Virus record (IMG/VR): IMGVR_UViG_3300020416_000657
Origin: an uncultured virus (IMG/VR IMGVR_UViG_3300020416_000657)
Taxonomy: Duplodnaviria; Heunggongvirae; Uroviricota; Caudoviricetes
Direction: 5' to 3' (one strand)
DNA length: 62,980 nucleotides
The translations under genes were made by a program, and so were the position numbers. A model generated the notes under the pieces. That model worked only from the letters and a program-made list of their open reading frames with translations, made no database searches and was not told where the DNA came from. Below are positions 8,175-61,879 of the stretch, piece after piece; positions within the stretch are counted from its first letter, which is position 1, and each line of letters starts with the position of its first letter.

Positions 8175-8232
8175 AATCAATGACTTAGAGAGGCAGCTTT
8201 TACTTGACATCTGCTATGGGATATGCGATCAT
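8175..8232 (+). promoter_or_regulatory. IHF-consensus site plus sigma70-type promoter with GATCAT -10
   Basis: AATCAATGACTTA 8175-8187; TTGACA 8204-8209, 17-nt spacer, GATCAT 8227-8232. Confidence 0.8.
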
Positions 8233-8259
8233 AGTACTGTAATTGAGAGTGAGAGACAT

Positions 8260-10689
8260 ATGGACATAACTTCTAAATCATACCTTGCGAAACTCCTCGC
8301 TACTGAGGATGTTTCGATTGAACATAGGAATGTACCTACCGCGTACTTCGATTTGAAGTCTAGGAAAATTGTACTTCCCAATTGGAAGGACATGCCTGAT
8401 TTCTTGTATGATTTATTGATTGGTCATGAAGTTGGTCACGCTCTCGTAACTCCCGCTGAAGGTTGGCACTCTGCCTCTTCTAGTAAGGGTGCAAATTTCA
8501 AATCATTCTTGAATGTTGTAGAAGATGTTAGGAATGAGAGACTAGTTAAAATCAGATATCCAGGCTTGGTCAAGTCATTCTATAAAGGATATCAAATGCT
8601 TTACAAGAAAGACTTTTTCGGTCTTTCAAAATTACAAAAGACTCCCCAAGAATTACCACTAATTGATAGAATCAATCTTCACGCTAAGGTTGGTGCTTTC
8701 CTTACTCTACAATTCACCGCTGAGGAACAGGTCATGCTTGACAAGTGTTTCGCTGCTGAGACTTGGGATGAGGTTGTCGCCATTGCTGAGGAGTTGTATG
8801 ACTTCTCTAAGACTGAAGACGCGATGCAAGATCTTTTAGATGAACAAATGGGTATGCCCCAGTTCGGTGAAGATGAAGATGAAGATGACTTCGCTCAAGA
8901 TGAGAATGGCGAATGGTCAGAATCACCATACGGTGAACAAGAATCGGATGAGAATGAAGGTGAAGGCGAGTCCGAGTCTGGTGAAGAAACTGAAGAAGGT
9001 GAAGAGAGTGGTTCTGAGTCTGGTGAAGGTGAAGAGACTGAAGAAGAGACTGAAGATACTACTCCTTCTAGAGAAGAGTCAAAAAATACTGAAGATTCTT
9101 CTGAGTCTGGTGACCCAGAAGATGGCGATATCATGGAAGGTTCTGATAATACTGATGGTGCTAATCCATATGAGTTTGATGACGCGGAACCTAAGTCATT
9201 TACCGATGAAGCGTTTAGAGATGCTGAACAAAACCTAGTAGAATCTGGCAAGACCAATGGTGTTGTTACTGCTACTATGCCTAAGTTCAAGTCTAAGTAC
9301 TTTATTTTCCCAACTACCGATGTTTGGCCTGCTCAAGATTTTGAGTATGTTTGCGGTGGAAGGTATGATGACATTCCTGCTGGTTCTGCTAAGGATGTAG
9401 AGAAAACTTTGCTTGATGAATTCATGCAAAGAAACAAGGGTTCAATTAATCAACTAGTCATGCAGTTTGAGATGAAGAAAAAAGCCACCCTATTGAGGAA
9501 GGCTCAAGTCAACAAAACTGGTAAGTTGAATGAAGATAAGTTGTGGGCATACAAGTTGACTGAAGACTTGTTCCTATCAAGTACTACTGTGCCAGATGGT
9601 CAGAACCATGGCATGATGATGTTTGTAGACTTCTCTGGTTCAATGGGTAGACACATGGCTGGTACTATTGAACAGACACTAATTCAAGTTGCCTTCTGTA
9701 AAAAAGTTGGTATCCCATTTGATGTGTACGGTTTTTCAAACTGTGCTAACTCACTCCAGAGTGAGAAGTTCGGGAATGCCTCTAGGGCTTCTGCTTTCCA
9801 ATCTGCTAATGATGGTGAGTTGTTTATTGAGTCTGGTGGTTTCGGATTGCTTCAGTTGATATCTTCTGAATTGCCTCAGAGTGAGTACAATAGATGTTTC
9901 AAAAAGTTACTTGGTTACAAAACTTCATTTGAGTGGAGAGATATGAAACCAAGGCTGGAAAGATATAATGTTCCTTACCATCTTTATCTTGGTTCTACTC
10001 CGCTGTCAAGTTGTATGATAGTTGGTGCTAAGATTGCTAAAGAGTTCAAAGAAAGAAACAGAATTGAAGTTATGAATACAATTGTTCTTTCCGATGGTGG
10101 AAACACTTCTGACTTGGAAGTAATCTCTGAAGGTAAGTATGAAGAGAGTGGTAGGTTCAGATATGAAAATGCCATCTCAAAAGAGTTTGGTTATGGATAC
10201 GGTGAAGAGAGAACCGAGATTGGTAAGTTCCAATTGAAAGGCAACGGTTTGTCAGTCACCACTAACATCAAGGGAATGTATGGAACAAACTACGGTAGGG
10301 TCTCTTATGAAAGTGCTACTGCTGTTACTTTCGACTACTACAAAAAGTTTGTCGGTTCCAGAATAGTTCACTTCTTCCTAGTTGATAACAACATTAGAGA
10401 AGCGAGACAGGCATGGACTGATATGACAGGTCAGTATGCCGAGTATGATGAAAACTTTGATAAAGAAAAGTCAACTAATTGGAAAAACAATAACTTCATG
10501 GCTTGCGAGTCTAGGTTGGGAAGTGATGCTACTTTCATTCTGAAAGGTGCTAAGTCTCTTAATGAAGAGGCAGAGTTTGAAGTCAAGTCTGATAAGAAGG
10601 CTGACATTTTGAGAGGGTTCAAGAATTTCCAGAAAGGCAAGTCCAATTCCAGACAGTTCTTGAACAGATTTATTGATGAGGTCGCGTAA
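8260..10689 (+). CDS. CobT-like vWA protein with N-terminal HExxH metallopeptidase-like domain
   Basis: HEVGH, acidic linker, MIDAS DFSGSM...TP...LSDG; next to AAA+ partner. Confidence 0.85.
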   Translation: MDITSKSYLAKLLATEDVSIEHRNVPTAYFDLKSRKIVLPNWKDMPDFLYDLLIGHEVGHALVTPAEGWHSASSSKGANFKSFLNVVEDVRNERLVKIRYPGLVKSFYKGYQMLYKKDFFGLSKLQKTPQELPLIDRINLHAKVGAFLTLQFTAEEQVMLDKCFAAETWDEVVAIAEELYDFSKTEDAMQDLLDEQMGMPQFGEDEDEDDFAQDENGEWSESPYGEQESDENEGEGESESGEETEEGEESGSESGEGEETEEETEDTTPSREESKNTEDSSESGDPEDGDIMEGSDNTDGANPYEFDDAEPKSFTDEAFRDAEQNLVESGKTNGVVTATMPKFKSKYFIFPTTDVWPAQDFEYVCGGRYDDIPAGSAKDVEKTLLDEFMQRNKGSINQLVMQFEMKKKATLLRKAQVNKTGKLNEDKLWAYKLTEDLFLSSTTVPDGQNHGMMMFVDFSGSMGRHMAGTIEQTLIQVAFCKKVGIPFDVYGFSNCANSLQSEKFGNASRASAFQSANDGELFIESGGFGLLQLISSELPQSEYNRCFKKLLGYKTSFEWRDMKPRLERYNVPYHLYLGSTPLSSCMIVGAKIAKEFKERNRIEVMNTIVLSDGGNTSDLEVISEGKYEESGRFRYENAISKEFGYGYGEERTEIGKFQLKGNGLSVTTNIKGMYGTNYGRVSYESATAVTFDYYKKFVGSRIVHFFLVDNNIREARQAWTDMTGQYAEYDENFDKEKSTNWKNNNFMACESRLGSDATFILKGAKSLNEEAEFEVKSDKKADILRGFKNFQKGKSNSRQFLNRFIDEVA

Positions 10690-10771
10690 GTGGTTGATTT
10701 TACAGGGAAAGAAAATGAAAAAAAATTCATTTTGGCCCTTGACTTCTGCCCCCAAATATGGGATCATGATC
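10687..10771 (+). promoter_or_regulatory. IHF-consensus site (reverse) plus promoter with GATCAT -10
   Basis: TAAGTGGTTGATT 10687-10699; TTGACT 10739-10744, 17 nt, GATCAT 10762-10767, second GATC at 10768. Confidence 0.8.
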
Positions 10772-10801
10772 AAGTAATTGAGAAAAAGTGAGAGGTAAAT
10801 T

Positions 10802-12040
10802 ATGAGTGTAAAACAGAAAGAACAGTTCCTTCAGGCCCTTGCCGATGTGAACAATTCCGCGTCTGCTGTGTTCTCCAAGGCGGAGGCAATGCAGATTGCA
10901 AAATCGAATGGACTGAAAAATCCCATGTGGTTTTTCAAAGAGTGTAAAGTTGGTAGGAACCAATTTTCGCCAAACATGGCAACTCTAATGACTGTAGGTA
11001 ATACTGCTCTCAAACCTGTCGCCGCTGAGGCGCCTGCCCTTGAAGAGTCGGTATCTACCTTGGAACCAATTGAGACAATTCAGTCTCAATCATTGGATGC
11101 CAAGATTGTAAAACAGGCTAAACTTGCGGTGGAAATCGAGAATTTAATTCCAGATTCAGATAGTACTTATGTCCCATTTGGGTTTCATAAAGATTTGGTG
11201 AACATCATCAAGTCTGGTATGTTCTATCCGACTTTCATTTGTGGTCTTTCTGGTAACGGTAAGACTATGATGGTGGAACAGGTTTGCGCCAAACTCAAGA
11301 AAGAAGCCATTAGGGTTAACATCTCTATCGAAACCGATGAGGATGACTTGATTGGTGGTAACACTCTCGTAGATGGTAATGTGGTTTACAGGGAAGGCCC
11401 TGTGCTGACTGCCATGAAGAGAGGTGCGATTCTCATTCTGGATGAGATTGATAGGGGTTCTAACAAGTTGATGTGCCTTCAGGCAATCCTTGAAGGGAAA
11501 CCTTACTTCAATAAGAAGTCTGGTGAGGTTGTCACGCCTGCTAAAGGTTTCAATGTGATTGCTACCGCGAATACAAAAGGTAGAGGTTCCGATGACGGTA
11601 AGTTCATGGGTGCTCAAGTTCTGGATGAGGCGTTCCTAGAAAGGTTCGCTATCACGGTTGAACAGGAATATCCTTCTAGTGTTCAAGAGAAGAAAATTGT
11701 CATGAACAAAATGGGTGTTGCTGAGTGTGTCGATGAAGACTTTGCTGACAAGTTGGTCATGTGGGCTGACATAATCAGAAAGACTTTCTACGAAGGTGGA
11801 ATCGATGAGTTGGTTTCCACTAGAAGGTTGGAACACATTGTCAAGGCATACGCCATGTTCTCTGATAGACTCAAGGCAATTCAGTTGTGTGTCAATAGGT
11901 TTGATACCGACACTAAGTCTGCCTTCATTGACCTTTACACTAAGGTGGATGCTGGTGCCACGGTTGAAGATATCATGGACAGTCCTGCCGAAGAAGGTGA
12001 AAAAGCTGCTGCTGAGGAGAATGATAGTTATGACTTCTAG
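10802..12040 (+). CDS. cobS: CobS/MoxR-like AAA+ ATPase
   Basis: GLSGNGKT, ILDEID, ATANTKG, LDEAFLERF, STRRL. Confidence 0.9.
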   Translation: MSVKQKEQFLQALADVNNSASAVFSKAEAMQIAKSNGLKNPMWFFKECKVGRNQFSPNMATLMTVGNTALKPVAAEAPALEESVSTLEPIETIQSQSLDAKIVKQAKLAVEIENLIPDSDSTYVPFGFHKDLVNIIKSGMFYPTFICGLSGNGKTMMVEQVCAKLKKEAIRVNISIETDEDDLIGGNTLVDGNVVYREGPVLTAMKRGAILILDEIDRGSNKLMCLQAILEGKPYFNKKSGEVVTPAKGFNVIATANTKGRGSDDGKFMGAQVLDEAFLERFAITVEQEYPSSVQEKKIVMNKMGVAECVDEDFADKLVMWADIIRKTFYEGGIDELVSTRRLEHIVKAYAMFSDRLKAIQLCVNRFDTDTKSAFIDLYTKVDAGATVEDIMDSPAEEGEKAAAEENDSYDF

Positions 12041-12880: not shown

Positions 12881-12910
12881 TTGACATTTGCCCCTAACAA
12901 ATGTTAGTAT
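12881..12910 (+). promoter_or_regulatory. Sigma70-type promoter for gp45 operon
   Basis: TTGACA-18-TAGTAT with TG extension. Confidence 0.6.
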
Positions 12911-12938
12911 ATGATGTTTAATTTGATTGAGGTATATT

Positions 12939-13589
12939 ATGAAACTATCCAAAAGTACTTTGGAGTTGTTGAAAAACTTTGCTACGATTAATACCAATTT
13001 ATTGGTTAAGTCTGGTAGTAGTTTATCAACTGTGTCCGCTTCTAAGTCTATTTTTGCAAAGGGCACAATCGAAGAGAGCTTCCCACAGGAGTTCGCAATC
13101 TATGACTTAAATCAATTTCTATCTTTGGTCACAATGAGTGAGGATACTGAGATTGATTTTTCCGATGATTATCTGACATGTAAGTCCGATGCTGGAAGGT
13201 TCAAGTTTTATTACGCGGAACCATCTATTATCGTGGCAGCTCCAGATAAAGAAATTGAAATTGATGCTTTCTATCAATTCAATATTACCAAAGAACAACT
13301 CAACACTATCTACAGGGCAGCGAGTGTAATCTCTGCTCCTACTCTTAGTGTTGTCGCCAATGGTGGCAATGTAGTTCTTAGTGTGGGTGACCCGAATACT
13401 CCTAAGAGTAATTCATTCACTACCGACATTGGTAATGCTAATGTAGAGTTTGATGCTAGACTAGGAATTGAAAACCTAAAAGTAATCGCGGATGATTATG
13501 AGGTTACTGTTTCCCAGAAGAAAGTATTCAAATTTTCTAACGCGAAGAGAACCTATTTCTTGGCACTAGAACCGAGTTCAAATATTTAA
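12939..13589 (+). CDS. gp45: Sliding clamp
   Basis: MKLSKSTLELLKNFATIN..., FAIYDLNQFL. Confidence 0.95.
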   Translation: MKLSKSTLELLKNFATINTNLLVKSGSSLSTVSASKSIFAKGTIEESFPQEFAIYDLNQFLSLVTMSEDTEIDFSDDYLTCKSDAGRFKFYYAEPSIIVAAPDKEIEIDAFYQFNITKEQLNTIYRAASVISAPTLSVVANGGNVVLSVGDPNTPKSNSFTTDIGNANVEFDARLGIENLKVIADDYEVTVSQKKVFKFSNAKRTYFLALEPSSNI

Positions 13590-13753: not shown

Positions 13754-14368
13754 ATGAAAATCGAAGTTGGTCAAAAACTGCCACAAGATATCACTTTTCA
13801 CATGAGGGTGAGGGATGAAAATATGGTGGCACAGGGTGATGATAACCCATACATTTGGCAGATGGTTAATTCAACTGACTTGTTCAAGGATAAAAGGGTA
13901 GTTCTTTTTTCTTTGCCAGGCGCTTTTACTCCAACATGTTCTACTTATCAACTACCAGACTATGACAATAATTACGAATTGTTCAAAGCAAATGGTATTG
14001 ATGAAGTGTATTGTCTATCTGTTAATGATAGTTTTGTTATGAACAAGTGGGGTGATTGGTTGGACATCGATAATGTCAAATTAATTCCAGATGGTAGTGC
14101 TTATTTTACTGAGCAAATGGGTGCATTGGTAAGGAAAGACAATCTAGGATTTGGCGCTAGGTCATGGAGATATTCTTTACTCGCAAATGATGGAGTAGTT
14201 GAAGTCGCATTTGTCGAAGATGGATGTGGTGACGATTGTCCAACAGACCCATATGAAGTGTCTGACCCCTTAACTATGATGGAGTATATTCAAACTGTTA
14301 GTCCAGTAGGTAGACAGCACGAATTAAATCTTGAAGATGGATTGGGAACAGAAGAACAGTTTGCATAA
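13754..14368 (+). CDS. Peroxiredoxin (Prx5 type)
   Basis: SLPGAFTPTCS, SVNDSFVM, GFGARSWRY. Confidence 0.93.
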   Translation: MKIEVGQKLPQDITFHMRVRDENMVAQGDDNPYIWQMVNSTDLFKDKRVVLFSLPGAFTPTCSTYQLPDYDNNYELFKANGIDEVYCLSVNDSFVMNKWGDWLDIDNVKLIPDGSAYFTEQMGALVRKDNLGFGARSWRYSLLANDGVVEVAFVEDGCGDDCPTDPYEVSDPLTMMEYIQTVSPVGRQHELNLEDGLGTEEQFA

Positions 14369-15152
14369 AGTTGATTACGATTTAAAACCTTTATCAAAAG
14401 AACTCGCAATAGATTTTATACAAACGCATCATTATTCACCTATGATGCCTAAACTTACGAAACACTATTTGGGGTGTTTCTTGGAAGGTGAATTAGTAGG
14501 CGTTTTGACTCTGGGATGGGGAACACAACCTAGACAAACAATCAATAAAATGTTTACAGGTCTGGAGTCAAAGCATTACTGGGAGATTGGTAAGATGTGC
14601 ATGACGGATGAAATGCCAACCAATTCCGAATCACAAATGATAAAGAAAACTGTGAGATGGATAAAAGATAATTGTCCAGATGTATTGTTTCTTTATACAA
14701 TGGCAGATGGTATCATGGGTAAGTGTGGATATGTATATCAGGCAAGTAATTTTTTATACGGTGGACAATACTTCACTCAAGTATATGAAATAAATGGTGA
14801 GAAGGTTCACCCAAGAGCAACAAGAAAGTTATGTGAGGAGAACGCAAAGTTCTCTGGCAAAGAGAGAGTTTTTTGGTTGACTTCAGATTTTATGCAAGAG
14901 AAGGGAATCAAAAAAATAGAAGGGTATATGTTTAGATATATCTTTCCGCTGAATAAGAAAGCAAAAAAATTATTGAAAAAATCAAATATGGAATGGACTA
15001 GAACTTATCCAAAAGACCATGACCTAAAATGGTTTGATAAAACATCCAATCCAAAATTTGAAATCGAACAACCTCACTTCACATATGATGAAGTTCTCCA
15101 TAACGCGAGGAATATATCTGGTGGTGGGGCATCTTTAAGAGGAATATTATGA
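14331..15152 (+). CDS. Mom-like GNAT-family DNA modification protein (start may be TTG 14361)
   Basis: HHYS...LVGVLTLG...EIGKMC...NSES...AD...GYVYQASNFLY pattern. Confidence 0.7.
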   Translation: MKMDWEQKNSLHKVDYDLKPLSKELAIDFIQTHHYSPMMPKLTKHYLGCFLEGELVGVLTLGWGTQPRQTINKMFTGLESKHYWEIGKMCMTDEMPTNSESQMIKKTVRWIKDNCPDVLFLYTMADGIMGKCGYVYQASNFLYGGQYFTQVYEINGEKVHPRATRKLCEENAKFSGKERVFWLTSDFMQEKGIKKIEGYMFRYIFPLNKKAKKLLKKSNMEWTRTYPKDHDLKWFDKTSNPKFEIEQPHFTYDEVLHNARNISGGGASLRGIL

Positions 15153-18274: not shown

Positions 18275-18311
18275 TTGACTTTGGAAAAAAAGTCCCCAGA
18301 TCATATAAATA
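18275..18311 (+). promoter_or_regulatory. Overlapping sigma70-type promoter (GATCAT -10) and T4 late promoter for hsp20
   Basis: TTGACT 18275-80, 18 nt, GATCAT 18299-304; TATAAATA 18304-11. Confidence 0.7.
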
Positions 18312-18316
18312 TAGTA

Positions 18317-18372
18317 GTAGATGCTCGGGTGAGGTCTACACTTTTAACTCGCTTAATAAGGAGGAAAACATG
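18317..18372 (+). promoter_or_regulatory. ROSE-like RNA thermometer in hsp20 5' UTR
   Basis: CTCGCTT (18348-54) pairs with SD AAGGAG (18358-63) leaving a bulged G; upstream GTAGA/TCTAC hairpin. Confidence 0.65.
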
Positions 18373-18819
18373 AATACATTAAGCACACAAGCGCATTGGG
18401 ACAATCTTGTCTCTGCATTTCCACACATTCGCAGACAATTCGTAGGGTTCGATAGAGTAATTGATTTACTCAACCAGAACTTTGAGTTGAATGTGAATTC
18501 ATACCCACCTTTCAACATCGAAAAATTAGATGAAGAAAACTACGAGATTCAAATGGCTCTCGCTGGATTTAAAGAATCTGATTTAACAATTGAAGTGAAA
18601 GACGGTACGCTTACTGTTGAGGGGAATCAAGAATCGGAAGAAACATCTGATTTCATTCATCAAGGTATTGCTCAAAGAAAATTCAAAAAGTCATGGAGTC
18701 TCGCTGACACAGTTGTTGTCGAGGGTGCTAAATTGACAGATGGTATTCTTAGAGTTTCTTTGAAGAATGTTATTCCAGAAGAAAAGAAAGCTCAAACAAT
18801 TAAGATTAAGACCAAGTAA
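18370..18819 (+). CDS. hsp20: Small heat shock protein (Hsp20/IbpA family)
   Basis: YPPFNI, ALAGF, HQGIAQRKF, GAKLTDGIL, IPEEKK. Confidence 0.95.
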   Translation: MNTLSTQAHWDNLVSAFPHIRRQFVGFDRVIDLLNQNFELNVNSYPPFNIEKLDEENYEIQMALAGFKESDLTIEVKDGTLTVEGNQESEETSDFIHQGIAQRKFKKSWSLADTVVVEGAKLTDGILRVSLKNVIPEEKKAQTIKIKTK

Positions 18820-19395: not shown

Positions 19396-19424
19396 TTGAC
19401 TTCTGATACACAATCGTGTATACT
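19396..19424 (+). promoter_or_regulatory. Sigma70-type promoter for gp43
   Basis: TTGACT-17-TATACT. Confidence 0.75.
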
Positions 19425-19452: not shown

Positions 19453-21957
19453 ATGTCTAACTTTTACACTTATGCGTGGCAATATGGAAATTCTATTCTT
19501 ACTCGTGGAGTAAGGAATGGGGAGCGTTTTACTGAAAAACATCCTTTCCAGCCAACCTTGTATGTCAGAAGTAATGAACCTTCTGAATTTACTAACATTG
19601 ATGGTCACTATCTAAAACCAATTCAGTTTGGAGATAATGGCGACTGCAAAGAATTCCTAGACAAATATTCTAAGGTAGATAATTATCCTATCTATGGTCA
19701 AACTGATTTGACCTATCAGTATTTGTCTTCTATGTATCCGCAAGATATTGAGTTTGACCTCAGTAAAATGCGGATTTTCTCAATTGATATTGAGACAACT
19801 GCCGAACATGGTTTCCCAGATACAGAGAATCCTATCGAAGAGGTTCTTCTTATCACACTCGTAGACAATTACACCAAAGAAATATTTACTTGGGGTTCTG
19901 GTGAGTGGAAGCCTGGCGAAGAAACAAAAGACCTCAATGTCAATTACACTTATTGTTCCGATGAGTATGACTTATTGGAAAAATTCATGACATGGTGGGC
20001 ACAAGATTATCCCGATGTAGTTACTGGATGGAACCTAGAACTATTTGATATGCCATATTTGGTTGGTAGAATTGACAGGATGTTTGGTAACAACGCGAAG
20101 AATAATCTCAGTCCATATGGGATGACTAGGAAGAAAGTCATCAAGGGTCACAACAATCGTGAATTGTTGAAGGTTGATATGAAGGGTATCATTCAACTTG
20201 ACTACATGGATTTGTACAAAAAGTTTACTTATACTTTCCAAGAAAGTTATCGACTTGATTACATTGCCGAGGTAGAACTTGGTAAGAAGAAATTGGAAAG
20301 TGGATATGAAACATTCCGCGAGTTCTATGAGAATGATTGGAATCGATTCATTGACTACAACATCATCGATACTGTTCTGGTTGACGAACTTGATGACAAG
20401 ATGAAATTCTTGGAACTGATTATCACAATGGGATATGACTGTAAATGTAATTACAATGATATCTTTTCATCTGTGAGAACTTGGGATTGTTTGTTATTCA
20501 ATCATCTACTTGAAAAGAACATTATGATTCCTCAGAAGAAGGAACACTTCTCTAAGGGATTTGCTGGTGGTTATGTGCAAGACCCGAAGGTGGGTAAGTA
20601 CAAGTGGGTTGTATCAGTTGATGCGACTTCTCTGTATCCATCTATCATCATGCAACACAATCTATCGCCAGAGATGTTGGCAGAGGGACACAGACCTCTG
20701 GACTGTACGGTTGATAGTATTCTGGAAAGGAAACATGTTCTCAAGAGATTGAAGGAAGCAGACTTATCCATGGCAGCCAACGGTTATATGTTTGCTAGAA
20801 ACACGCAAGGATTCATGGCAGAAATTACTCAGAAGTTTTTTGATGACAGACAGAAGTACAAAAAACTGATGAAGAAAGCAGAACAAGATTTTGAGGATAC
20901 CAAGAATCCAGAACTCAAGAAAGATATTGCGAAGTTCAACAACTTCCAGATGGCAAGAAAGATTCAATTGAACTCTCTTTTTGGTGCGATAGGTAACAAG
21001 TGGTTCAGATATTTTGATGAACGCATCGCAGAGGCAATCACACTAACTGGTCAGTTAATCATTCGTGATACTGGTAAGGCAGTTGATGAGTTTCTAAACA
21101 AGTTTCTTGGTACAGAGGATGTTGAGTATTCTTTCTATACTGATACTGATAGTTGTTATGTGACTCTTGATAAGATGGTGGAAGAACATCTACAGGGTAA
21201 ATCTCGTGATGAGATTATCAACATACTTGACAACTTTGTCGAGAACAAACTAGAACCAGCAATCAATGGTAGAATGGTTGAACTTGGTGAGTACATGAAT
21301 GTATTCCAACCCAAGATATTCTTCAAACGCGAGGCGATTGCGGATACTGGTATCTGGGTTGCAAAGAAAAGATACGCATTGAATGTATGGGACAATGAAG
21401 GTGTTCGATACAAAGAACCCAAACTGAAGGTGATGGGTCTGGAGATTGTAAGGTCTTCTACACCAGCACCAGTTCGTTCAAGTCTCAAAAAGGCAGTTGA
21501 GTTATGTTTGAACAAGGATGAAAAAGAATTACAGGATTTTGTTGAGGATACATGGCAGGCATTTTCTAAGATGTCTCCAGAAGAAATTGCCTTCCCACGC
21601 GGATGTAACAACATTGATAAGTATGCCTCAAGAGAAACAGTTTATACTAAAGGAACACCGATGCATGTTCGGGGTGCCTTAGTTTACAATCACTTGATTA
21701 GGACTCAGAAACTAGAGAAGAAGTATCAAACCATTCAAGATGGTGACAAGATTAAATTTCTCTATCTGAAAGAACCTAATCATGTGAGAGAAAATACCGT
21801 GGCGATGAATGGTCTTATGCCGAAAGAGTTTGACTTGCATCGTTACATTGATTATGAAACAATGTTTGAGAAAGCATTTATTGACCCATTGACTACTATA
21901 GTCACCAGTTTGGATTGGAAGACTAGACCAGTAGCAACATTGGAGTCGTTATTTTAG
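19453..21957 (+). CDS. gp43: Family B DNA polymerase
   Basis: DIET exonuclease motif, DATSLYPS, KIQLNSLFG, YTDTDS. Confidence 0.98.
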   Translation: MSNFYTYAWQYGNSILTRGVRNGERFTEKHPFQPTLYVRSNEPSEFTNIDGHYLKPIQFGDNGDCKEFLDKYSKVDNYPIYGQTDLTYQYLSSMYPQDIEFDLSKMRIFSIDIETTAEHGFPDTENPIEEVLLITLVDNYTKEIFTWGSGEWKPGEETKDLNVNYTYCSDEYDLLEKFMTWWAQDYPDVVTGWNLELFDMPYLVGRIDRMFGNNAKNNLSPYGMTRKKVIKGHNNRELLKVDMKGIIQLDYMDLYKKFTYTFQESYRLDYIAEVELGKKKLESGYETFREFYENDWNRFIDYNIIDTVLVDELDDKMKFLELIITMGYDCKCNYNDIFSSVRTWDCLLFNHLLEKNIMIPQKKEHFSKGFAGGYVQDPKVGKYKWVVSVDATSLYPSIIMQHNLSPEMLAEGHRPLDCTVDSILERKHVLKRLKEADLSMAANGYMFARNTQGFMAEITQKFFDDRQKYKKLMKKAEQDFEDTKNPELKKDIAKFNNFQMARKIQLNSLFGAIGNKWFRYFDERIAEAITLTGQLIIRDTGKAVDEFLNKFLGTEDVEYSFYTDTDSCYVTLDKMVEEHLQGKSRDEIINILDNFVENKLEPAINGRMVELGEYMNVFQPKIFFKREAIADTGIWVAKKRYALNVWDNEGVRYKEPKLKVMGLEIVRSSTPAPVRSSLKKAVELCLNKDEKELQDFVEDTWQAFSKMSPEEIAFPRGCNNIDKYASRETVYTKGTPMHVRGALVYNHLIRTQKLEKKYQTIQDGDKIKFLYLKEPNHVRENTVAMNGLMPKEFDLHRYIDYETMFEKAFIDPLTTIVTSLDWKTRPVATLESLF

Positions 21958-25884: not shown

Positions 25885-25969
25885 TAAGTTGTTGATTTAG
25901 AAGGATATTTAATTTCACTTTTTTTCGCTTTGGCCCTTGACATTTGGGTCAAAATATGGGATCATGATC
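25885..25969 (+). promoter_or_regulatory. IHF-consensus site (reverse) plus promoter with GATCAT -10
   Basis: TAAGTTGTTGATT 25885-97; TTGACA 25937-42, 17 nt, GATCAT 25960-65, second GATC at 25966. Confidence 0.8.
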
Positions 25970-25996
25970 GTATAAATGAGAGAAGTGAGAGAAAAT

Positions 25997-26359
25997 ATGC
26001 AAAAAGAAATCGAAAACCTACTAACCTTAATCAACGAAGACTACGCGAGGTGGTCTACTCGTTCTTTTGAAGTCAATGATTTTGGCGGAGAAGAGAGGCG
26101 AGATGCTCGCATTGCTGAGTTCGCTGATAAACTGGTTGTCAAAGAAGGTCAGAAATACATCAAGATTATTTCAGACAATTCAGTTTGGGGATTCATTGTC
26201 AAGGGTGACAATGATAAATTATTTCAAAAGGGTGATGTTTTAAAACCCGCTGGTTGGGCTGCCCCCGCTAGGAACAAACCTAGAGGCAATGTGTTTGCCA
26301 TGATGGAAGGCAAAGGAACTGGTTGGGTAAGATGGACTGGCCCTCAGTACTTACGGTAG
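25997..26359 (+). CDS. Hypothetical early protein
   Basis: KYIKI..SVWGF..KGDVLKPAGWAAPARNKPRGN; first gene after the promoter. Confidence 0.8.
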   Translation: MQKEIENLLTLINEDYARWSTRSFEVNDFGGEERRDARIAEFADKLVVKEGQKYIKIISDNSVWGFIVKGDNDKLFQKGDVLKPAGWAAPARNKPRGNVFAMMEGKGTGWVRWTGPQYLR

Positions 26360-27104: not shown

Positions 27105-27468
27105 TGAACGAGAATATAGACAACTAGAACTTTTTCTAGGAGAACAGAAAGAGGAGGATGAGTTGACGAATCCCAAGTTTGCGCCTGAAGAACTTGAAAA
27201 CTCTAATCGCATATTTAAATCTGCTACACCAAAATATGACCTTAGTTGGTATATTAAATGGTTTTCATCTATATTAATACTAATAGCACTTACAATTAGA
27301 GCTGCAGATTATCCACGCATATATGATATGTGGTTTGGGTTTGTTGGTATGATTGGTTGGACATATGTTGGAATACTATGGAAAGATAGAGCGATTATCA
27401 TCATGAATGTTATCAGTACCGCACTTCTTCTCATAGGTTTATTGACCCATTATAGAGGAGGTTTTTAG
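27097..27468 (+). CDS. Hypothetical membrane protein
   Basis: Three hydrophobic helices, WYIKW...WKDRAII. Confidence 0.75.
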   Translation: MSDEREYRQLELFLGEQKEEDELTNPKFAPEELENSNRIFKSATPKYDLSWYIKWFSSILILIALTIRAADYPRIYDMWFGFVGMIGWTYVGILWKDRAIIIMNVISTALLLIGLLTHYRGGF

Positions 27469-27788
27469 TGCCAATTTACGAAATAGAAAATACAGAAACA
27501 GGCGAAATCTTTGAAGTCATGATGAAGATAGATGCCAAAGAAAAGATGATGGAAAAGAATCCTCATTTCAGACAAGTACCATCCGCACCAGCTTTAAATT
27601 TTGGTGGGGTTGGTGACAGGGTGAAACCCGATGGTGGATTCAAGGATGTCTTATCTAAAATTGCTGATGCTAATCCAACATCTAAACTTGCCGATGACTA
27701 TGGAAAGAAGGACAAGAAGTCTGTCGCTGTCCGTGACAGTATGAAACGAGTCAAAAAGAAATTAGGTTCTATCACAGACGGTTCCTAA
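27468..27788 (+). CDS. FmdB-like hypothetical protein
   Basis: MPIYE...TGE.FE...K.DGGFKDVLSKI pattern; GTG start after GGAGG. Confidence 0.7.
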   Translation: MPIYEIENTETGEIFEVMMKIDAKEKMMEKNPHFRQVPSAPALNFGGVGDRVKPDGGFKDVLSKIADANPTSKLADDYGKKDKKSVAVRDSMKRVKKKLGSITDGS

Positions 27789-40357: not shown

Positions 40358-40386
40358 TTGACATTTGGTCTCAAATGTGAGATCAT
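40358..40386 (+). promoter_or_regulatory. Sigma70-type promoter with GATCAT -10
   Basis: TTGACA 40358-63, 17 nt, GATCAT 40381-86. Confidence 0.8.
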
Positions 40387-40409: not shown

Positions 40410-40604
40410 ATGAGTCACCCAGTAAATGACCAAATAATAGACAATGCAATCAATACGGTTGCTTTTATGAACGATGACCAAGTGATGTCTGAACTCGCCA
40501 ACCATGGCGTTTCAATTGGTGGACAGGATATTGATAGTTTAAGGGACATTCTCACCGATATAGTGTGCGATGACCTAATGTCAAGACCAGGCCCCCACGG
40601 ATAA
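40410..40604 (+). CDS. Small acidic early hypothetical protein
   Basis: RBS AGGAG; directly after promoter. Confidence 0.75.
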   Translation: MSHPVNDQIIDNAINTVAFMNDDQVMSELANHGVSIGGQDIDSLRDILTDIVCDDLMSRPGPHG

Positions 40605-40621: not shown

Positions 40622-40650
40622 TTGACTTTTAATGCACTTATGTGTATAAT
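40622..40650 (+). promoter_or_regulatory. Sigma70-type promoter for primase (near-leaderless)
   Basis: TTGACT-17-TATAAT, 7 nt before ATG 40658. Confidence 0.8.
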
Positions 40651-47519: not shown

Positions 47520-48635
47520 ATGTGGAACTACTATGATGTTAACTCTATGACCATAGAACTATCTAGTCTATGTAATGCCGCTTGTCCGTGGTGTCCTAGA
47601 TACGAAGATTTTTCTAAAGTAGTTAACAGACAACTAGAACCACAGTATATAACTATTGACCAGTTTAAAGAGTGGTTTCCACCAGATTTTATGTCCAGAA
47701 TAAAACTATGGGCATTTACAGGGGATTATGGTGACGCTGGTACTAATCCAGATTTACCAGACATTATAAGACACATATATGAACACAACCCCAATGCTCA
47801 ACTATCGATGAACACTAACGGTGGTATGAGAACACCAGAGTTTTGGGGGTTACTTGGTCAGTTGTTTTCTAGAAAGGAACACAACAATATGATATTCTCA
47901 ATAGATGGACTTGAGGATACGAACCACATATACAGGAGAAATGTTAGGTGGAACAAACTAATGGAAAATGTTCTCGCGTTTCTGGATGCTGGTGGTAAGG
48001 CGACATGGGAGTGTTTGGTATTCCAACATAACCAACACCAGATAGATGAGATAAGAGATTTAGGAAAACACATGGGGTTTTCTGAGGTGCATTTTAAAAT
48101 GCCAAAAGGATTTGAGAAAGATAATATAAGAGTAAAAGATAAGAAAGGTGAATACCTCTATACAATATATCCTACTAGTGAAGACCAGATATCAAAAGGA
48201 TATCCAGATTTACACGGTAAGAAGGCAGAAGACTTAGATTATGAAGAAATTAGAGATGATATGGAGTCATATTATTCTAATGAACAGGGGGAAATAAAAT
48301 GTTTTTCCCAAAGAGATGACTTGACAGAATTAAAGATAACATCGTGGGGTACTGTATATCCATGTTGCCATTTTGGACACATATCTAAACATCAACGAGA
48401 GAATCAACAGTACTATAAAGCTCAACTTATCGACATATTCAAGGATAAAAATATATCTCTCAAGTCAAGAACATTAAAAGATATATTGGATGATGACCCA
48501 TTCAATTGGATTTACAATAGTTGGAAAAAGAAATCATGTCTGGCATGTTGGTCAAATTGTGGTGTGTCAGAAAGTAAACAACCAATAATGCAACAGATAT
48601 TTAATAAGGAAGGGAAGTTATATGGCACAACATAA
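47520..48635 (+). CDS. Radical SAM protein with SPASM/twitch-like C-terminus
   Basis: CNAACPWC, TNGG, FSIDG, VYPCC, CLAC..NC. Confidence 0.9.
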   Translation: MWNYYDVNSMTIELSSLCNAACPWCPRYEDFSKVVNRQLEPQYITIDQFKEWFPPDFMSRIKLWAFTGDYGDAGTNPDLPDIIRHIYEHNPNAQLSMNTNGGMRTPEFWGLLGQLFSRKEHNNMIFSIDGLEDTNHIYRRNVRWNKLMENVLAFLDAGGKATWECLVFQHNQHQIDEIRDLGKHMGFSEVHFKMPKGFEKDNIRVKDKKGEYLYTIYPTSEDQISKGYPDLHGKKAEDLDYEEIRDDMESYYSNEQGEIKCFSQRDDLTELKITSWGTVYPCCHFGHISKHQRENQQYYKAQLIDIFKDKNISLKSRTLKDILDDDPFNWIYNSWKKKSCLACWSNCGVSESKQPIMQQIFNKEGKLYGTT

Positions 48636-49242
48636 TGATATACGCGGATGGATGATGGACGGTGACTATAATGCCATAGAGAAGGTTTGTTCAGAGTTTC
48701 TAAATAGGGATTATGTCGAAGTATTTGAAATAGGAACCCTATATGGCAAAAGTGCCATTGCTTTTGATGACGCATTGAAAACTGTACCCCATCACATCAC
48801 CACAATGGATGTGTGTGAGGGTTGGATAGGGCCTTCAGATGAAATAATAGAGATGTTGGGACTAGATGACAATTTCAAGGCAATGCGTGATGCAAATAGA
48901 AGTACAGCAGAAGAACAGTTCGATGAGATACACACAAATATCTTGAATAGGGATATAACCTTTATCGATGATAAATGGGAACTTGGTTACGATTATCCAG
49001 TAGTCAGTCCCGATATAGTATTTTATGATGGTTCACATAGTTATGAGGAAACGAGAGATATTCTTCAATACTGGAGTGAGATTGCTGTTGAGGGAAAAGT
49101 ATTGGTAATTGATGATTACAATCATACACAATGGGAAGGACTCAAAAAGGCAGTAGATGAGTTTATAGATAAAACAGGGTGGGAGATAACTTCATACCCA
49201 GATTCAAAAATGATATCAATAAGGATAAACAATGATAGTTGA
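48622..49242 (+). CDS. Class I SAM-dependent methyltransferase (Methyltransf_24-like)
   Basis: EIGTLYGKS, YDGSHSYE, IDDY. Confidence 0.85.
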   Translation: MAQHNDIRGWMMDGDYNAIEKVCSEFLNRDYVEVFEIGTLYGKSAIAFDDALKTVPHHITTMDVCEGWIGPSDEIIEMLGLDDNFKAMRDANRSTAEEQFDEIHTNILNRDITFIDDKWELGYDYPVVSPDIVFYDGSHSYEETRDILQYWSEIAVEGKVLVIDDYNHTQWEGLKKAVDEFIDKTGWEITSYPDSKMISIRINNDS

Positions 49243-49951
49243 TTTTCACGGTTACGAATTGGAGTGCGATGAAACGGTATTCAGACCCACTACTATAAGC
49301 GAACTAACAGCACCAAGGATACCAGTAGAAGGTAAAAAGGTTTTAGACCTTGGATGTGGTGTTGGCCCATTATCGATATACTTTGCAAAGAATGGTGCCA
49401 AGTCTGTAACTGCTACCGATGTGTACGACAAACATATAGAATATACAAAGATAAACGCGGAAAAGAACGAGGTAGATATAGAGGTATTCCAGAGTGACAT
49501 CTTTGAAAATATTACAGATAAATATGATATCATTTGTTGTGATGTGTCTGGAGTAGACAGAAGAGTCGCAGAGATGACAGGTTGGTTCCCAGAAGGAGTG
49601 CCTACAGCAGATACTACAGGTTCCGATTTGATTTGTGAGGCAACCAAACACTCACCAGAATATTTGAATGAGGGTGGGGAGTTGTATATATGCACAACAT
49701 CATGGTCAGACTTACAAAAGATACAATTGATGATGATATTTACGCCACTCATGACTCAAGGAGAGGTTATATTCTCACAGGAGATTCCTTTTTCAAGACG
49801 ATTGATGGCAAACTTGGATAACTTAGACCCCAAACGAGGGGCAGTACCCACTACAGAACAATATTTTTACACGAAACAAGGCGATAGTTACATCAAGGAT
49901 GGTGATGACTATAGATGGAAGTTTAATCTATGGCGGATGGCAAGACTCTGA
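49232..49951 (+). CDS. Class I SAM-dependent methyltransferase (HemK/PrmC-like)
   Basis: VFRP, VLDLGCGVG, SDIF, L..GG.L; lacks NPPY. Confidence 0.8.
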   Translation: MIVDFHGYELECDETVFRPTTISELTAPRIPVEGKKVLDLGCGVGPLSIYFAKNGAKSVTATDVYDKHIEYTKINAEKNEVDIEVFQSDIFENITDKYDIICCDVSGVDRRVAEMTGWFPEGVPTADTTGSDLICEATKHSPEYLNEGGELYICTTSWSDLQKIQLMMIFTPLMTQGEVIFSQEIPFSRRLMANLDNLDPKRGAVPTTEQYFYTKQGDSYIKDGDDYRWKFNLWRMARL

Positions 49952-57106: not shown

Positions 57107-57360
57107 TGGCGGACTTAACCAATCAACTAATCCACACTTTAAAAATCTATTTTGATAGTCAGATAAACAAGCATAAAATAAATGTACAAGTTCTGATGCA
57201 AAAAGGCGTGGGAGTTGCAGAACATCCAGATATAATGCAAACGATTGAGGATGAACTTGGCAAAATTGCTGAATTCAAGGATAAACTAGAAGCACTTGAT
57301 GACCTTGAAGTATCAGAAGAGAATCAGCTGAGTTTTTTAAGGGAAGATGGCACGACCTAG
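57106..57360 (+). CDS. Hypothetical protein
   Basis: VGVAEHPDI..TIE.EL. Confidence 0.75.
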   Translation: MADLTNQLIHTLKIYFDSQINKHKINVQVLMQKGVGVAEHPDIMQTIEDELGKIAEFKDKLEALDDLEVSEENQLSFLREDGTT

Positions 57361-57877
57361 TAGATTCTTTTTGTTTAAATGCGGTGGTTGGAAGAATGAA
57401 TTTTGGATTGTAGATGAAAATAGTCTACAGGAAGTCCCAAAACCACGCGAGATGATAATCAAATTCTCTACCGTTGAAAAGGTCAGAGAGTATGTTATCA
57501 CACAAAACCCAACAGACCTACCGATAGTTGATAGATGCAGAGACCGTACCGCTTGGCACACGCCAGAGGGTCGAGAACGCATAAAACAAGCTAAACTAGG
57601 TCAAAGTAACCCCAATTCTACAGGATTGTCAGAGGCGCACAGAGCGAAGATATCGCAGACTATGACAGGTACGCGAAGGGGTGAATTCAATCCCATGTAT
57701 GGGAGACAACACAAAGCACATACCATAGAACTAATACGACAGAAGGCATACGCACGCCCCAAAATGAGGTGGTGTGTAGAACCATCTGGCAAGTCCCATT
57801 TGATACGAGCTGACGGTGAAATACCCGAAGAATGGCAATGGGGACGATATTACGACAAATACAGACCAAATGAGTGA
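57347..57877 (+). CDS. NUMOD3-motif DNA-binding protein
   Basis: HTPEGRERIK, LSEAHRAKIS, GEFNPMYGRQHK repeats; no nuclease motif seen. Confidence 0.7.
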   Translation: MARPSRFFLFKCGGWKNEFWIVDENSLQEVPKPREMIIKFSTVEKVREYVITQNPTDLPIVDRCRDRTAWHTPEGRERIKQAKLGQSNPNSTGLSEAHRAKISQTMTGTRRGEFNPMYGRQHKAHTIELIRQKAYARPKMRWCVEPSGKSHLIRADGEIPEEWQWGRYYDKYRPNE

Positions 57878-57911: not shown

Positions 57912-57980
57912 AATCAATGACTTACAGAGGCGGATTTTTCGCCCAAACGCTTGACTTTTGCCCCCAATTCTGTCATGATC
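57912..57980 (+). promoter_or_regulatory. IHF-consensus site plus promoter with GATC overlapping -10
   Basis: AATCAATGACTTA 57912-24; TTGACT 57951-56, 17 nt, CATGAT, GATC 57977-80. Confidence 0.75.
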
Positions 57981-58012
57981 ATTATGTAAGATAAATCATG
58001 AGAGGAAATAAT

Positions 58013-58261
58013 ATGACAAATAAAATCAATTTCGTAGGTGCAAAAGATGGTGGTCTTGTGTTCGTTCTTGAGAATGACACTTATGAGAACAACATTCACG
58101 GCAAAAACCTTGAAGAGTGTGCTTTGATTATCGCAAAACACGGTCTTGCTGACAGGGTGATGGGTTCTTCTTCAATGGACTTTGCTAGTGAGGATGGATT
58201 TGAAACCGATGATGGTGCGATGACTATGTACCAATATGCAATCAAATTGGCGGGAGTTTAA
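58013..58261 (+). CDS. Hypothetical early protein
   Basis: RBS GAGG; SSSMDFA.E.GF motif. Confidence 0.75.
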   Translation: MTNKINFVGAKDGGLVFVLENDTYENNIHGKNLEECALIIAKHGLADRVMGSSSMDFASEDGFETDDGAMTMYQYAIKLAGV

Positions 58262-58262
58262 T

Positions 58263-59246: not shown

Positions 59247-59247
59247 C

Positions 59248-59481: not shown

Positions 59482-59800
59482 TTTAATTCAATACGAATCT
59501 ATGCTCCAGAAATTCAATTGGAATTGGGAGATGGATTATGAGATGGAACAAATGGACGATGTGCCGATAAAAATACGCTCTAAGAATGAGGCGATTGAGG
59601 ACGAATTGATAAATTACAGTATGATATCACCAATGCATACCGAGTTATATAACGCTCATATGGTGTACGCGACTGAGGATGGCCCGAAACCTAAACTATG
59701 GAAAGCGGGAAAAGAAAACGGAAAAACTGTCTACAAAATCATGCACGATAACGGTGACGGTTTAATTTTTGATTGGAGAAAACAACATGTACGAATATAA
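59459..59800 (+). CDS. Hypothetical protein
   Basis: Coupled 113-aa ORF. Confidence 0.7.
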   Translation: MARKKNPSLIQYESMLQKFNWNWEMDYEMEQMDDVPIKIRSKNEAIEDELINYSMISPMHTELYNAHMVYATEDGPKPKLWKAGKENGKTVYKIMHDNGDGLIFDWRKQHVRI

Positions 59801-60152
59801 TGTAGTAATACAACGCTGGGTGGATGGCGATACAGTAGATGTCGATATAGATTTAGGCTTTGGTGTATGGTTAAATGACCAGCGCGTAAGACTGGCAGGC
59901 ATCAACGCCCCAGAAAGCAGAACGCGAGACTTAGAAGAGAAGAAACTAGGACTGGCGGCAAAAGACTTCTGTAAAAACTTCTGTAAAGAAGGAGAGTATG
60001 CTAAATTGGTGTGTAAGAAGTATGATGCCAAGGGCAAATTCGGAAGGATTCTAGGGGAGATTTGGAGCGTAACGCAATTCGCAGATAAATCATTGAACGA
60101 ATATTTACTTGATAAGGGACACGCTACAGAATATCATGGCGGCAAAAGGTAG
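59787..60152 (+). CDS. Thermonuclease (SNase-like)
   Basis: VDGDT, RVRLAGINAPE, GKFGRILG. Confidence 0.9.
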   Translation: MYEYNVVIQRWVDGDTVDVDIDLGFGVWLNDQRVRLAGINAPESRTRDLEEKKLGLAAKDFCKNFCKEGEYAKLVCKKYDAKGKFGRILGEIWSVTQFADKSLNEYLLDKGHATEYHGGKR

Positions 60153-61294: not shown

Positions 61295-61302
61295 GGAGAG
61301 TC

Positions 61303-61452
61303 ATGAATAATGTTTTAATTTTATTAATCGGTATCTGGATAGGTATGGGAATGCCTCTGCCAGACTGTATATTCACTTATTGTACTGAGGAAGCAGCGTA
61401 TGAAGAAACATGGGACAAAGGTAAATCGTGTGGAGAGTATGAGTCGCAATGA
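61303..61452 (+). CDS. Small secreted/membrane peptide (49 aa)
   Basis: RBS GAGGAG; MNNVLILLIGIWIGMG... Confidence 0.6.
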   Translation: MNNVLILLIGIWIGMGMPLPDCIFTYCTEEAAYEETWDKGKSCGEYESQ

Positions 61453-61650
61453 GCATACCAGACTTAAACGCATTAGTAATAAGACAATTAGGAGAGCGGG
61501 TAAACGACACACAGAGAGTTCTGTACTTGAACTGTGGAGGGAAAAAAGTGGGAAATAGTGGTAATCTAAATCCGCGAGTGAGCAGGAGTGAGCGCCGCCG
61601 CCCTTCCGAAAAATCAGACGCCGCTGCCGCTCCCAGACGCGGTAAACAGA

Positions 61651-61680
61651 GATCATACCACAGCACAGCACTAATGTCAA
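61651..61680 (-). promoter_or_regulatory. Leftward sigma70-type promoter with GATC overlapping -10
   Basis: Minus strand TTGACA-17-TATGAT(C) with TG extension. Confidence 0.65.
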
Positions 61681-61744
61681 GCACTTTCCGCCATCTGTGG
61701 TGGCAGTGGCTGTGAAAATAATTCGTCTTTTTTGAAGAAAACGC

Positions 61745-61773
61745 TTGACAACTGCTATTTCCATGTGTATAAT
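61745..61773 (+). promoter_or_regulatory. Consensus sigma70 promoter
   Basis: TTGACA-17-TATAAT. Confidence 0.8.
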
Positions 61774-61808
61774 AAGGTGTCGCCTTTAAGAAGAGATATG
61801 GCTGCTGC

Positions 61809-61879
61809 TAAGTGATTGATATATAAGGGAAATAAAAGATAAAATAATCCTTGACATCTGGTCTCATTTATGGGATCAT
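61809..61879 (+). promoter_or_regulatory. IHF-consensus site (reverse) plus promoter with GATCAT -10
   Basis: TAAGTGATTGATA 61809-21; TTGACA 61851-56, 17 nt, GATCAT 61874-79. Confidence 0.8.

Follow-up and report, generated by a model that had tools for sequence, protein, structure and literature searches.

The stretch of DNA analyzed here, called the window throughout, is the 62,980-nucleotide (nt) IMG/VR record IMGVR_UViG_3300020416_000657 from an uncultured virus, and the subject is a class of its promoters that carry the word GATC in or against the -10 box, in a genome that has otherwise lost nearly all of its GATC. By PHROGs matches, the window encodes the gene set of a T4-like myovirus, with a DNA polymerase, clamp and clamp loader, UvsX, helicase, primase, RegA, gp46/47 nuclease, ribonucleotide reductase, and ThyX, and the recognizable genes are all on the + strand. 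Window positions 1-40367 are identical at 99.99% to IMG/VR record G001, and positions 62859-62980 match the opposite end of G001, so that the two records join into a single circularly permuted genome of 159,607 base pairs (bp); genome-wide counts below are made on this composite. The stretch is found in marine DNA runs from 8 studies and hence is not an assembly artifact. A search for tRNA genes in the window and in G001 gave none.

The window DNA polymerase has 47% identity at most to that of any cultured phage, and neither megablast of 12 kb nor blastn of the promoter at 25937 gives a relevant match among cultured phages. The capsid protein has its best cultured relatives in Methylophilales phage Melnitz (69%) and the Pelagibacter phages HTVC008M (67%) and Mosig (66%). 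The phage is an uncultured marine T4-like myovirus, and among cultured phages the OM43 phage Melnitz and the SAR11 myophages stand closest to it. A host call from a scan of bacterial assemblies with the capsid protein was rejected, since the matches are only to contigs of metagenome-assembled genomes, none above 77% identity, and they scatter over many phyla and extend to archaea, which is binning noise. Relatives were collected by means of a CobS-like gene and two further genes. They include a nearly complete genome, G002, with a median protein identity of 87%; a complete one, G004, with a median of 62%, from which GATC has not been purged (observed over expected, O/E, 0.70; 568/812); and the fragmentary contigs G003, G007, G008, G009, and G010, which are pieces of clade relatives.

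The window contains exactly 15 GATC, at 3018, 8227, 8830, 10762, 10768, 18299, 25960, 25966, 36059, 40381, 41132, 57977, 61651, 61874, and 62229. Dinucleotide-preserving shuffles (n = 100) contain a mean of 219.6 (standard deviation 14.7), with 100 of 100 above 15, and the maximal-order Markov expectation is 256 (O/E 0.06); for the whole genome, 33 are found where the Markov model expects 577. The original prediction, made from the letters of the window, had estimated by eye about 15 against about 200 expected, and the exact count bears it out. Ten of the 15 overlap or abut the -10 box in a total of eight promoters of the form TTGAC(A/T)-17/18 (Table 1), each of which lies where that prediction had placed it, with the tandem sites and the 18-nt spacer as described. 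Of the others, 3018, 8830, 36059, and 41132 are within open reading frames (ORFs) and 62229 is in a conserved noncoding stretch. Seven of the eight promoters occupy spaces between ORFs, and each precedes a + strand gene or, in the case of 61851, a noncoding stretch. The minus-strand promoter at 61680 is inside two unannotated minus-strand ORFs, 61324-61764 and 61373-61684, within a GC-rich stretch that has no family match.

Over the whole genome, about 25 sigma70-type promoters could be recognized by hand. In 11 of them, GATC is part of the -10 hexamer or lies right beside it, and these 11 account for 14 of the 33 GATC. The forms seen are GATCAT, CATGAT or TATGAT followed by C, TAGAAT followed by GATC, GATCagTATAAT, and the palindrome GATCATGATC. 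The three promoters outside the window read TTGACA-17-GATCATGATC, TTGACA-N11-GATCag-TATAAT, and TTGACT-17-TAGAAT followed by GATC. Promoters of replication genes had been said to use ordinary boxes free of GATC, and that is what the clamp (TAGTAT), polymerase (TATACT), and primase (TATAAT) genes have.

Table 1. GATC-bearing promoters of the window, comparison promoters, and a residual GATC site, in window coordinates
Feature	Position	Strand	Description
GATC promoter	8204..8232	+	TTGACA, 17-nt spacer ending TGc, GATCAT at 8227-8232; upstream of gene 8260-10689 for an 809-amino-acid (aa) "peptidase"
GATC promoter	10739..10771	+	TTGACT, 17-nt spacer ending TGg, tandem GATC GATCATGATC at 10762-10771; upstream of CobS-like AAA gene 10802-12040
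GATC promoter	18275..18304	+	TTGACT, 18-nt spacer, GATCAT; upstream of Hsp20 gene 18370-18819
GATC promoter	25937..25969	+	TTGACA, 17-nt spacer ending TGg, GATCATGATC at 25960-25969; upstream of gene 25976-26359 (weak DUF7717 match)
GATC promoter	40358..40386	+	TTGACA, 17-nt spacer ending TGa, GATCAT; upstream of small ORF 40410-40604
GATC promoter	57951..57980	+	TTGACT, 17-nt spacer ending TGt, CATGAT then C (GATC 57977-57980); upstream of ORF 57998-58261
GATC promoter	61651..61680	-	TTGACA at 61680-61675, 17-nt spacer ending TGg, TATGAT at 61657-61652 then C
GATC promoter	61851..61879	+	TTGACA, 17-nt spacer ending TGg, GATCAT; second of two tandem promoters, ahead of GC-rich noncoding stretch
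Comparison promoter without GATC	12881..12910	+	TTGACA-18-TAGTAT (TGt); upstream of sliding clamp gene 12927-13589
Comparison promoter without GATC	19396..19424	+	TTGACT-17-TATACT; upstream of DNA polymerase gene 19453-21957
Comparison promoter without GATC	40622..40650	+	TTGACT-17-TATAAT; upstream of primase gene 40658-41701
Comparison promoter without GATC	61745..61773	+	TTGACA-17-TATAAT; 106 nt upstream of GATCAT promoter 61851
Residual non-promoter GATC	62229..62232		within invariant TTTGGGATC of conserved noncoding element

A definition of the -10 zone that is blind to GATC takes every TTGACW box on both strands and the positions from spacer position 12 to 5 nt beyond the hexamer. In the window, such zones cover 3.0% of positions and hold 10 of the 15 GATC (binomial P = 1.3 × 10−12), in the genome 14 of 33 (P = 2 × 10−14), and in the relative G002 12 of 34 (P = 2 × 10−11), as against 20 of 568 (P = 0.14) in the non-purged G004; the promoters are paralogous cassettes that match one another in BLAST, so the 11 are not independent events and these P values overstate independence, the first of several points that count against the methylation reading weighed below. 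With the same zones, there is no enrichment for CTAG, CATG, TCGA, GTAC, TGCA, or AATT, and there is one for TATA, as expected of -10 boxes. Exact counts had been called for in the original prediction, and the zone test and genome counts agree in concentrating the survivors in promoters.

The next matter is whether these are functioning -10 boxes. A generic promoter scan returns 60 sites when 59.7 are expected by chance, so that consensus matching alone is uninformative, and the case for promoters has to be made by position, orientation, the TGn extension, and conservation. The -35 is TTGACA or TTGACT in all eight window promoters, the spacer is 17 nt in seven and 18 nt in one, and the -10 hexamer fits nAnnnT in all eight, with the G or C at -12 being non-consensus. 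TGn at -15/-14 is found in 9 of 11 GATC-type promoters and in 3 of 14 others (P = 0.005, on the hand-curated genome-wide list), an excess of the extended -10 that is expected if it makes up for an unfavorable -12 base. The Hsp20 promoter has gtccccaGATCATataaat in 4 of 14 clade loci, with gtccccaTATTATataaat or near variants in the remaining 10; the GATCAT and TATTAT forms are at the same position and differ only at -12 and -9, and GATCAT retains A(-11) and T(-7). Judged by these features, the GATC sites most probably belong to working -10 boxes, in DNA that RNA polymerase contacts and opens.

The loss of GATC is part of a wider pattern. The window has no ACGT where 72 are expected by the Markov model and 4 CCGG where 44 are. 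Genome-wide, the observed/expected numbers are 0/196 for ACGT, 7/116 for CCGG, 0/37 for ACGCGT, 0/23 for GGTACC, 0/23 for TCGCGA, and 0/16 for TTCGAA, with zero copies of GTGCAC and GGWCC, and the control palindrome CTAG is at expectation (439/418). At least 8 palindromes besides GATC are thus purged equally or more completely. The remaining 7 CCGG are all in coding sequence, one of them within a P-loop. The missing words differ by lineage: G004 retains GATC and lacks CGCG (0/112), CGATCG, GGATCC, and AGATCT; another lineage, G012, lacks TCGA (0/316), ACGT (0/316), and CGCG (0/87); G013 lacks GTAC (0/136); and some lineages or loci are without CCGG only or without ACGT only. GGWCC is at zero in the window clade and G004, but is present in G012-G015. 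These word counts bear the usual mark of a broad restriction-site avoidance in which GATC is one word among several. Differences of this kind between lineages are expected from host restriction, and the missing words are a rich record of host restriction repertoires. That GATC is purged at all implies a GATC-reading activity of some kind in the host. In G012 (L336-L340) and G015 (L344-L346), the surviving GATC are mostly GATCC (24 of 26 and 4 of 4), and in those two lineages the flanking base seems to matter, either to which word is avoided or to a protecting methylase.

Promoter GATC is preserved among relatives with shifting arrangement (promoters are referred to as P with a position). At P25937, GATCATGATC is retained in 21 of 21 clade loci (L118-L138) over which the downstream protein falls to 71% identity, and in most of these 3.4-kb loci the two promoter GATC are the only ones. 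At the cobS promoter P10739, both GATC of GATCATGATC are present in 7 of 7 close loci with a printed upstream region (L012-L018); the sister lineage L021/L022 (81% identity; GATC 3/23 and 1/28) reads CATGATC, and the non-purged group L023-L028 (73-77% identity; GATC 90/76) reads TAAGCT. The GATCAT of P8204 is retained in G002, G003, and G008, and the TATGATC of P61680 in G002, G003, and G007. P57951 has the same arrangement in G002 and reads tggGATCAT in G003 and G007, P61851 reads tgaGATCAT in G003 and G007 and tgtCATGATC in G002, and P63690 has an additional GATC in the spacer in G007. The fragments G008, G009, and G010 agree with G003 and G007 in that the arrangement drifts while one GATC persists, and the 12 zone GATC of G002 are at the same promoters as in this genome. 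BLAST loci are redundant, so distinct sequence variants were counted, giving GATC in 22 of 22 for the 10739 family, 6 of 7 for 8204, 5 of 5 for 61680 on the minus strand, 4 of 4 for 61851, and 3 of 3 for 65558. Part of the drift looks like slippage of the GATCAT unit, which would make the retention one by descent and not by repeated invention.

Such drift is also what would be seen if the GATC as such were inert, an explanation that we regard as possible, though on the unlikely side. GATCAT and CATGAT would then be serviceable extended -10 hexamers of paralogous cassettes, spread and homogenized by duplication, gene conversion, and GATCAT slippage, and they would escape the purge either because changes cost promoter function or because polymerase occupies and melts strong early promoters before a GATC nuclease cuts. 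Consistent with this, P10739, P25937, P57951, and P63690 find one another in BLAST searches, and the upstream sequence gaggcagctttt is common to P8204 and P63690; the copy number of GATCAT at P40358 varies, from one in the window to two, as tandem GATCATGATC, in G003 and G007; GATCAT and CATGATC are only a 3-nt shift apart at P57951 and P61851, so that retention is partly by descent; and A(-11) and T(-7) are kept, with TGn offsetting the -12 base. What inertness does not account for is the excess. Shielding covers tolerance of a site, but not an approximately 14-fold surplus, as about 1 GATC is expected in the -18 to -3 zones of 25 promoters (25 × 13 positions × 3.5 × 10−3) and 14 are seen. 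A change that would both improve the consensus and remove the site (TATCAT or GATAAT) is absent in all 21 P25937 loci and all 7 cobS loci.

Comparison with other lineages also speaks against inertness, since neither the non-purged relative nor three other purged lineages have GATC at the -10. G004 has paralogous cassettes of its own, with shared upstream gaggcagcttttt and gccccTTGAC motifs, whose boxes are TGtCATAAT, CATACT, TATAAT, and TAAGCT; among strict promoter candidates, GATC is carried by 0 of 21 in G004 and by 8 of 29 in the phage studied here (Fisher P = 0.015). The lineages G012, G013, and G015 have also been purged of GATC, with residual/expected numbers of 26/316, 3/136, and 4/176, and together they have 0 of 33 residual GATC in -10 zones vs 14 of 33 here (P = 2 × 10−5). 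Retention in the clade, with absence from G004 and from these three lineages, makes the promoter GATC neither a by-product of the purge nor a habit of the whole group. On this comparative evidence, selection in this clade has kept GATC at the -10 in the face of the pressure that removes the word elsewhere.

What might be selected includes a protein-binding site. The tandem form GATCATGATC is a perfect 10-bp palindrome, and CATGATCAT includes the 8-bp palindrome ATGATCAT, so that GATC might be the core of a palindromic operator over the -10 (GATCATGATC, ATGATCAT, or TGATCA), bound by a dimeric phage or host protein that represses or times the promoters. Tandem forms are found in the 10739, 25937, 40358, and 63690 promoter families, the operon behind P25937 encodes a PHROG "transcriptional regulator" (27468-27788), a winged-helix protein is encoded at L011:13451-13759, and several small clade-specific proteins have no assigned function. 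We nevertheless judge an operator improbable, given that half of the sites are a single GATCAT with non-palindromic flanks (tgcGATCATagt, tgaGATCATagt), that other GATC are in the spacer or past the hexamer with no common longer motif, that both annotated regulators are also in G004, which is without the sites, and that no reader protein was identified among the phage proteins scanned.

The proteins that could write, cut, or read GATC were sought with Pfam in 146 phage ORFs (every ORF of 50 aa or more outside the window, 106 in all, plus 40 of the 94 inside it) and with PHROGs in all 94 window ORFs. The search for a phage dam gene that the original prediction proposed has a negative outcome, there being no D12-class Dam in G001. 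The PHROGs search has a single weak "DNA methyltransferase" match (E = 3 × 10−10), to the protein at 48622-49242; that protein and its neighbor at 49232-49951 are the only S-adenosylmethionine (SAM) methyltransferase-like proteins, and both were rejected as adenine methylases because the motif (D/N)PP(Y/F/W) is absent. For two clade-specific proteins, Atlas look-ups yielded unnamed viral clusters and a sulfotransferase lead below threshold (0.85), and nothing more. The Pfam scan of the 146 ORFs found no MutH, DpnII, Sau3AI, or DpnI-type domain, the Pfam scans found no SeqA-like protein in the phage, and PHROGs and Pfam scans together returned nothing annotated as MotA or AsiA.

This survey bears on a further role for the sites, as places where a GATC nuclease of the host or the phage is meant to cut or nick the DNA, for early promoter shut-off, for starting recombination-dependent replication, or for clamp loading for late transcription. 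The indications are circumstantial, namely that a GATC-purged genome could tolerate such a nuclease, that 5 of the 33 GATC are within 40 nt of the T4-type late motif TATAAAT vs 2.8% of the genome, and that the phage encodes a PD-(D/E)XK nuclease (390-803), an SNase (59769-60152), and a TnsA-like protein. The scanned ORFs hold none of the GATC-nuclease domains just named, most GATC promoters are without a nearby late motif, and double-strand cuts at 11 places would break up the genome, and we consider this role very improbable.

The reading that we prefer, and hold only tentatively, is that a GATC-reading factor, with N6-adenine methylation the most likely means, modulates these promoters. The selected property would be that GATC is readable at the -10. 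A host GATC methylase, either orphan or part of a restriction-modification system, would set the N6-adenine methylation state, and that state would alter the binding of RNA polymerase to the GATC promoters or their opening. The gene set would thereby sense parental methylated vs newly replicated under-methylated DNA, or else the type of the last host. The affected genes would be the peptidase with the CobS-like ATPase, Hsp20, a noncoding RNA, and many small early genes, with the replication genes excluded; GATC boxes at the one set and ordinary boxes at the other fit two timing classes. If the phage promoters behaved like those of IS10 and IS50, they would be damped by methylation and released by replication, which would give a delayed-early class, with the sign of the effect not being fixed by the analogy. 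Such a class is attractive because middle promoters could not be identified in Melnitz (PMC9004378) or in pelagimyophages (PMC7029224) and because nothing in this phage was annotated as MotA or AsiA.

Several findings besides the paralogy of the cassettes weigh against methylation as the reader's cue. Because several palindromes are purged and the set differs by lineage, the depletion alone needs no methylation switch, and the independent purges without promoter retention indicate that the two traits are not necessarily coupled. No DNA methylase was found among the 146 ORFs of the Pfam scan, and with no phage methylase and no host call, methylation of the sites is an assumption. The offset of GATC from the -10 is variable (-12 to -9, -9 to -6, -6 to -3, or -18 to -15), and this range of -18 to -3 is not what a single fixed contact, for instance with A(-11), would give. 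The Hsp20 promoter can do without GATC, since the 10 of 14 clade loci mentioned above have TATTAT-like boxes there, a point that also suits inertness. The same is true of TGnGATCAT promoter-like sites that are found, among the matches listed, in marine phage contigs without GATC depletion, such as the L354 family with 11 GATC vs 10 expected in 3 kb; the collection-wide scan that found them uses a pattern of 14 specified bases for which many chance matches are expected, and it serves only to show that TGnGATCAT exists outside the clade.

The original prediction had proposed a methylation-gated switch that ties the shut-off of an early regulon to replication. Its foundation stands, in that the depletion is real and GATC is built into the -10 and under selection there, being conserved in the clade and absent at G004 promoters and from the -10 zones of three purged lineages. 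The superstructure fares less well, since the purge needs no switch and no phage methylase was found. Nor is shut-off after replication indicated, as methylation inhibits the IS10 and IS50 promoters, which predicts activation after replication. Methylation gating of the GATC promoters as such is plausible.

A more ambitious version, which we think unlikely, is that the phage uses host GATC methylation as an epigenetic clock or memory, its early regulon reading an injected, host-imprinted template vs a fresh one, or the restriction-modification type of the previous host. If so, it would supply a "middle" timing class that is not known for marine T4-like phages lacking MotA and AsiA, and the near-total purge of GATC would leave the few remaining sites as a clean, quickly methylated signal.

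Some neighboring features deserve description in their own right. The window segment 61885-62295 is GC-rich (0.55-0.58), has no ORF match, is behind two tandem promoters, and has a T-run at its end; its 3' 170 nt, including TTTGGGATC, are nearly invariant in G002, G003, and G007. Rfam gives no family for it, either at the gathering score or with the cutoff relaxed to E ≤ 1, and ARAGORN makes no call. RNA data come from four runs as contigs only, which show neither starts nor strands and in which uncovered stretches carry no meaning. In the metatranscriptome X20, contigs of a 90-95% relative that retains the GATC of the 61851 promoter span 61784-62087 at a depth of 45-110 vs 2-9 elsewhere, which supports an abundant RNA behind the tandem promoters, not a mapped start. 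An RNA contig of the relative starts at 61784, about 11 nt past the TATAAT hexamer of promoter 61745, a weak hint, being a contig end. The segment probably encodes an unclassified, abundant phage noncoding RNA. Downstream of the minus-strand promoter 61680, a GC-rich stretch of about 100 nt (minus strand, 61545-61650) ends in a T-run and may encode another small RNA, one with no annotated feature on the opposite strand. Outside the window, a permuted two-piece transfer-messenger RNA (tmRNA) with tag AENNTAYEDYALAA is encoded at L010:3648-3988 on the minus strand (composite 95987-96327), behind a non-GATC promoter and upstream of a gp33-like late coactivator; it holds one residual GATC. The same tmRNA arrangement has been described for phage Melnitz (PMC9004378).

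The T4-type late motif TATAAATA starts at 18304, at the Hsp20 promoter, and a late motif, either TATAAATA or TATAAAT, comes directly after three GATC promoters (18299-18311, 25966-25977, and composite 65599). The genes behind these three, Hsp20 included, may have overlapping early and late promoters. At 14331-15152, there is a strong match to the Mom family (PF25680, E = 2 × 10−58), adjoining a cytidylyltransferase with a cupin domain; the Mom-family gene is in the clade genomes G002, G003, G008, and G009 and is absent from the complete non-purged G004, and it hints at adenine hypermodification of the phage DNA. The small PD-(D/E)XK nuclease ORF 390-803 is absent from G002 and G004. ORF 57347-57877, directly upstream of promoter 57951, has a NUMOD3 motif that suggests a homing endonuclease. 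Outside the window are at least 7 radical SAM and SPASM proteins (L011:1564-4222, L010:15250-18990, L320, L321), an unusually large set, grouped with epimerases, UDP-glucose dehydrogenases, and a carbamoyltransferase.

The combination of a GATC purge over the whole genome with GATC kept in the -10 of a promoter class appears to be new, in that our literature searches found no description of it; its two halves, Dam-type control of individual promoters and the avoidance of GATC by phages, have long been known separately. If the sites are read through methylation, they would give abundant marine T4-like phages a simple, protein-free timing of gene expression, and a host restriction-modification system would leave a functional imprint on phage expression. 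Even if the GATC is inert, the clade is a clean natural experiment on restriction avoidance vs promoter function.

Among known systems, GATC is under-represented in T7 and other enterobacteriophages. Phage phiX174 is recorded as having no GATC (PMC5014478). Strong GATC under-representation and lineage-specific loss of several palindromes are common to the known cases and this phage, but those are cases of depletion only, whereas here the survivors are concentrated in the -10 boxes of a promoter class. For the promoters, a resemblance is to T4-type early promoters and PeSLs, which are likewise dispersed, mutually similar sigma70 cassettes before small early genes. The PeSL cassettes of Arbiol, Comeau and Krisch, 2010, are reportedly defined by a stem-loop adjoining the early promoter, and identity with them was rejected, as none of the 6 upstream flanks folds more stably than its shuffled versions (z between -1.6 and +1.5).

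SeqA is known only from some Gammaproteobacteria. The dnaA P2 promoter has GATC over the -10 as here, and it is reportedly the post-replication hemimethylated state that is bound there by SeqA, a transcription-blocking protein (PMC3701705); such sequestration needs SeqA, and the tandem sites here are 6 bp apart and not on one helix face. MamA of M. tuberculosis is described as affecting several promoters via a site fixed relative to the -10 (PMC3701705). One methylase motif over the -10 of several promoters suggests a mechanism that is shared and not locus-specific, and likewise here; but the MamA motif is at one identical position and its methylation raises expression, whereas in this phage the GATC may be anywhere from -18 to -3.

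The best-studied parallels are the transposase promoters IS10 pIN and IS50 P1, which have in common with the phage promoters a GATC over the -10 of a sigma70 promoter. Dam sites overlap the -10 in IS10, dnaAp2, and glnS, and the IS10 promoter is described as directly inhibited by methylation, with hemimethylated DNA as intermediate (PMC3701705); the IS50 transposase promoter has two GATC, resembling the tandem GATCATGATC, and is reported to be de-repressed about 19-fold in dam- cells (PMC4265352). In both, the methylation state is described as directly changing initiation, which couples expression to passage of the replication fork. An overlap of this kind between a methylase target and the -10 is present in the phage, with GATC within -18 to -3 of 11 promoters. 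The IS10 and IS50 promoters are single weak transposon promoters in a Dam+ host with a GATC-rich genome, whereas here there are about 11 strong-looking early promoters in a lytic phage that otherwise avoids GATC.

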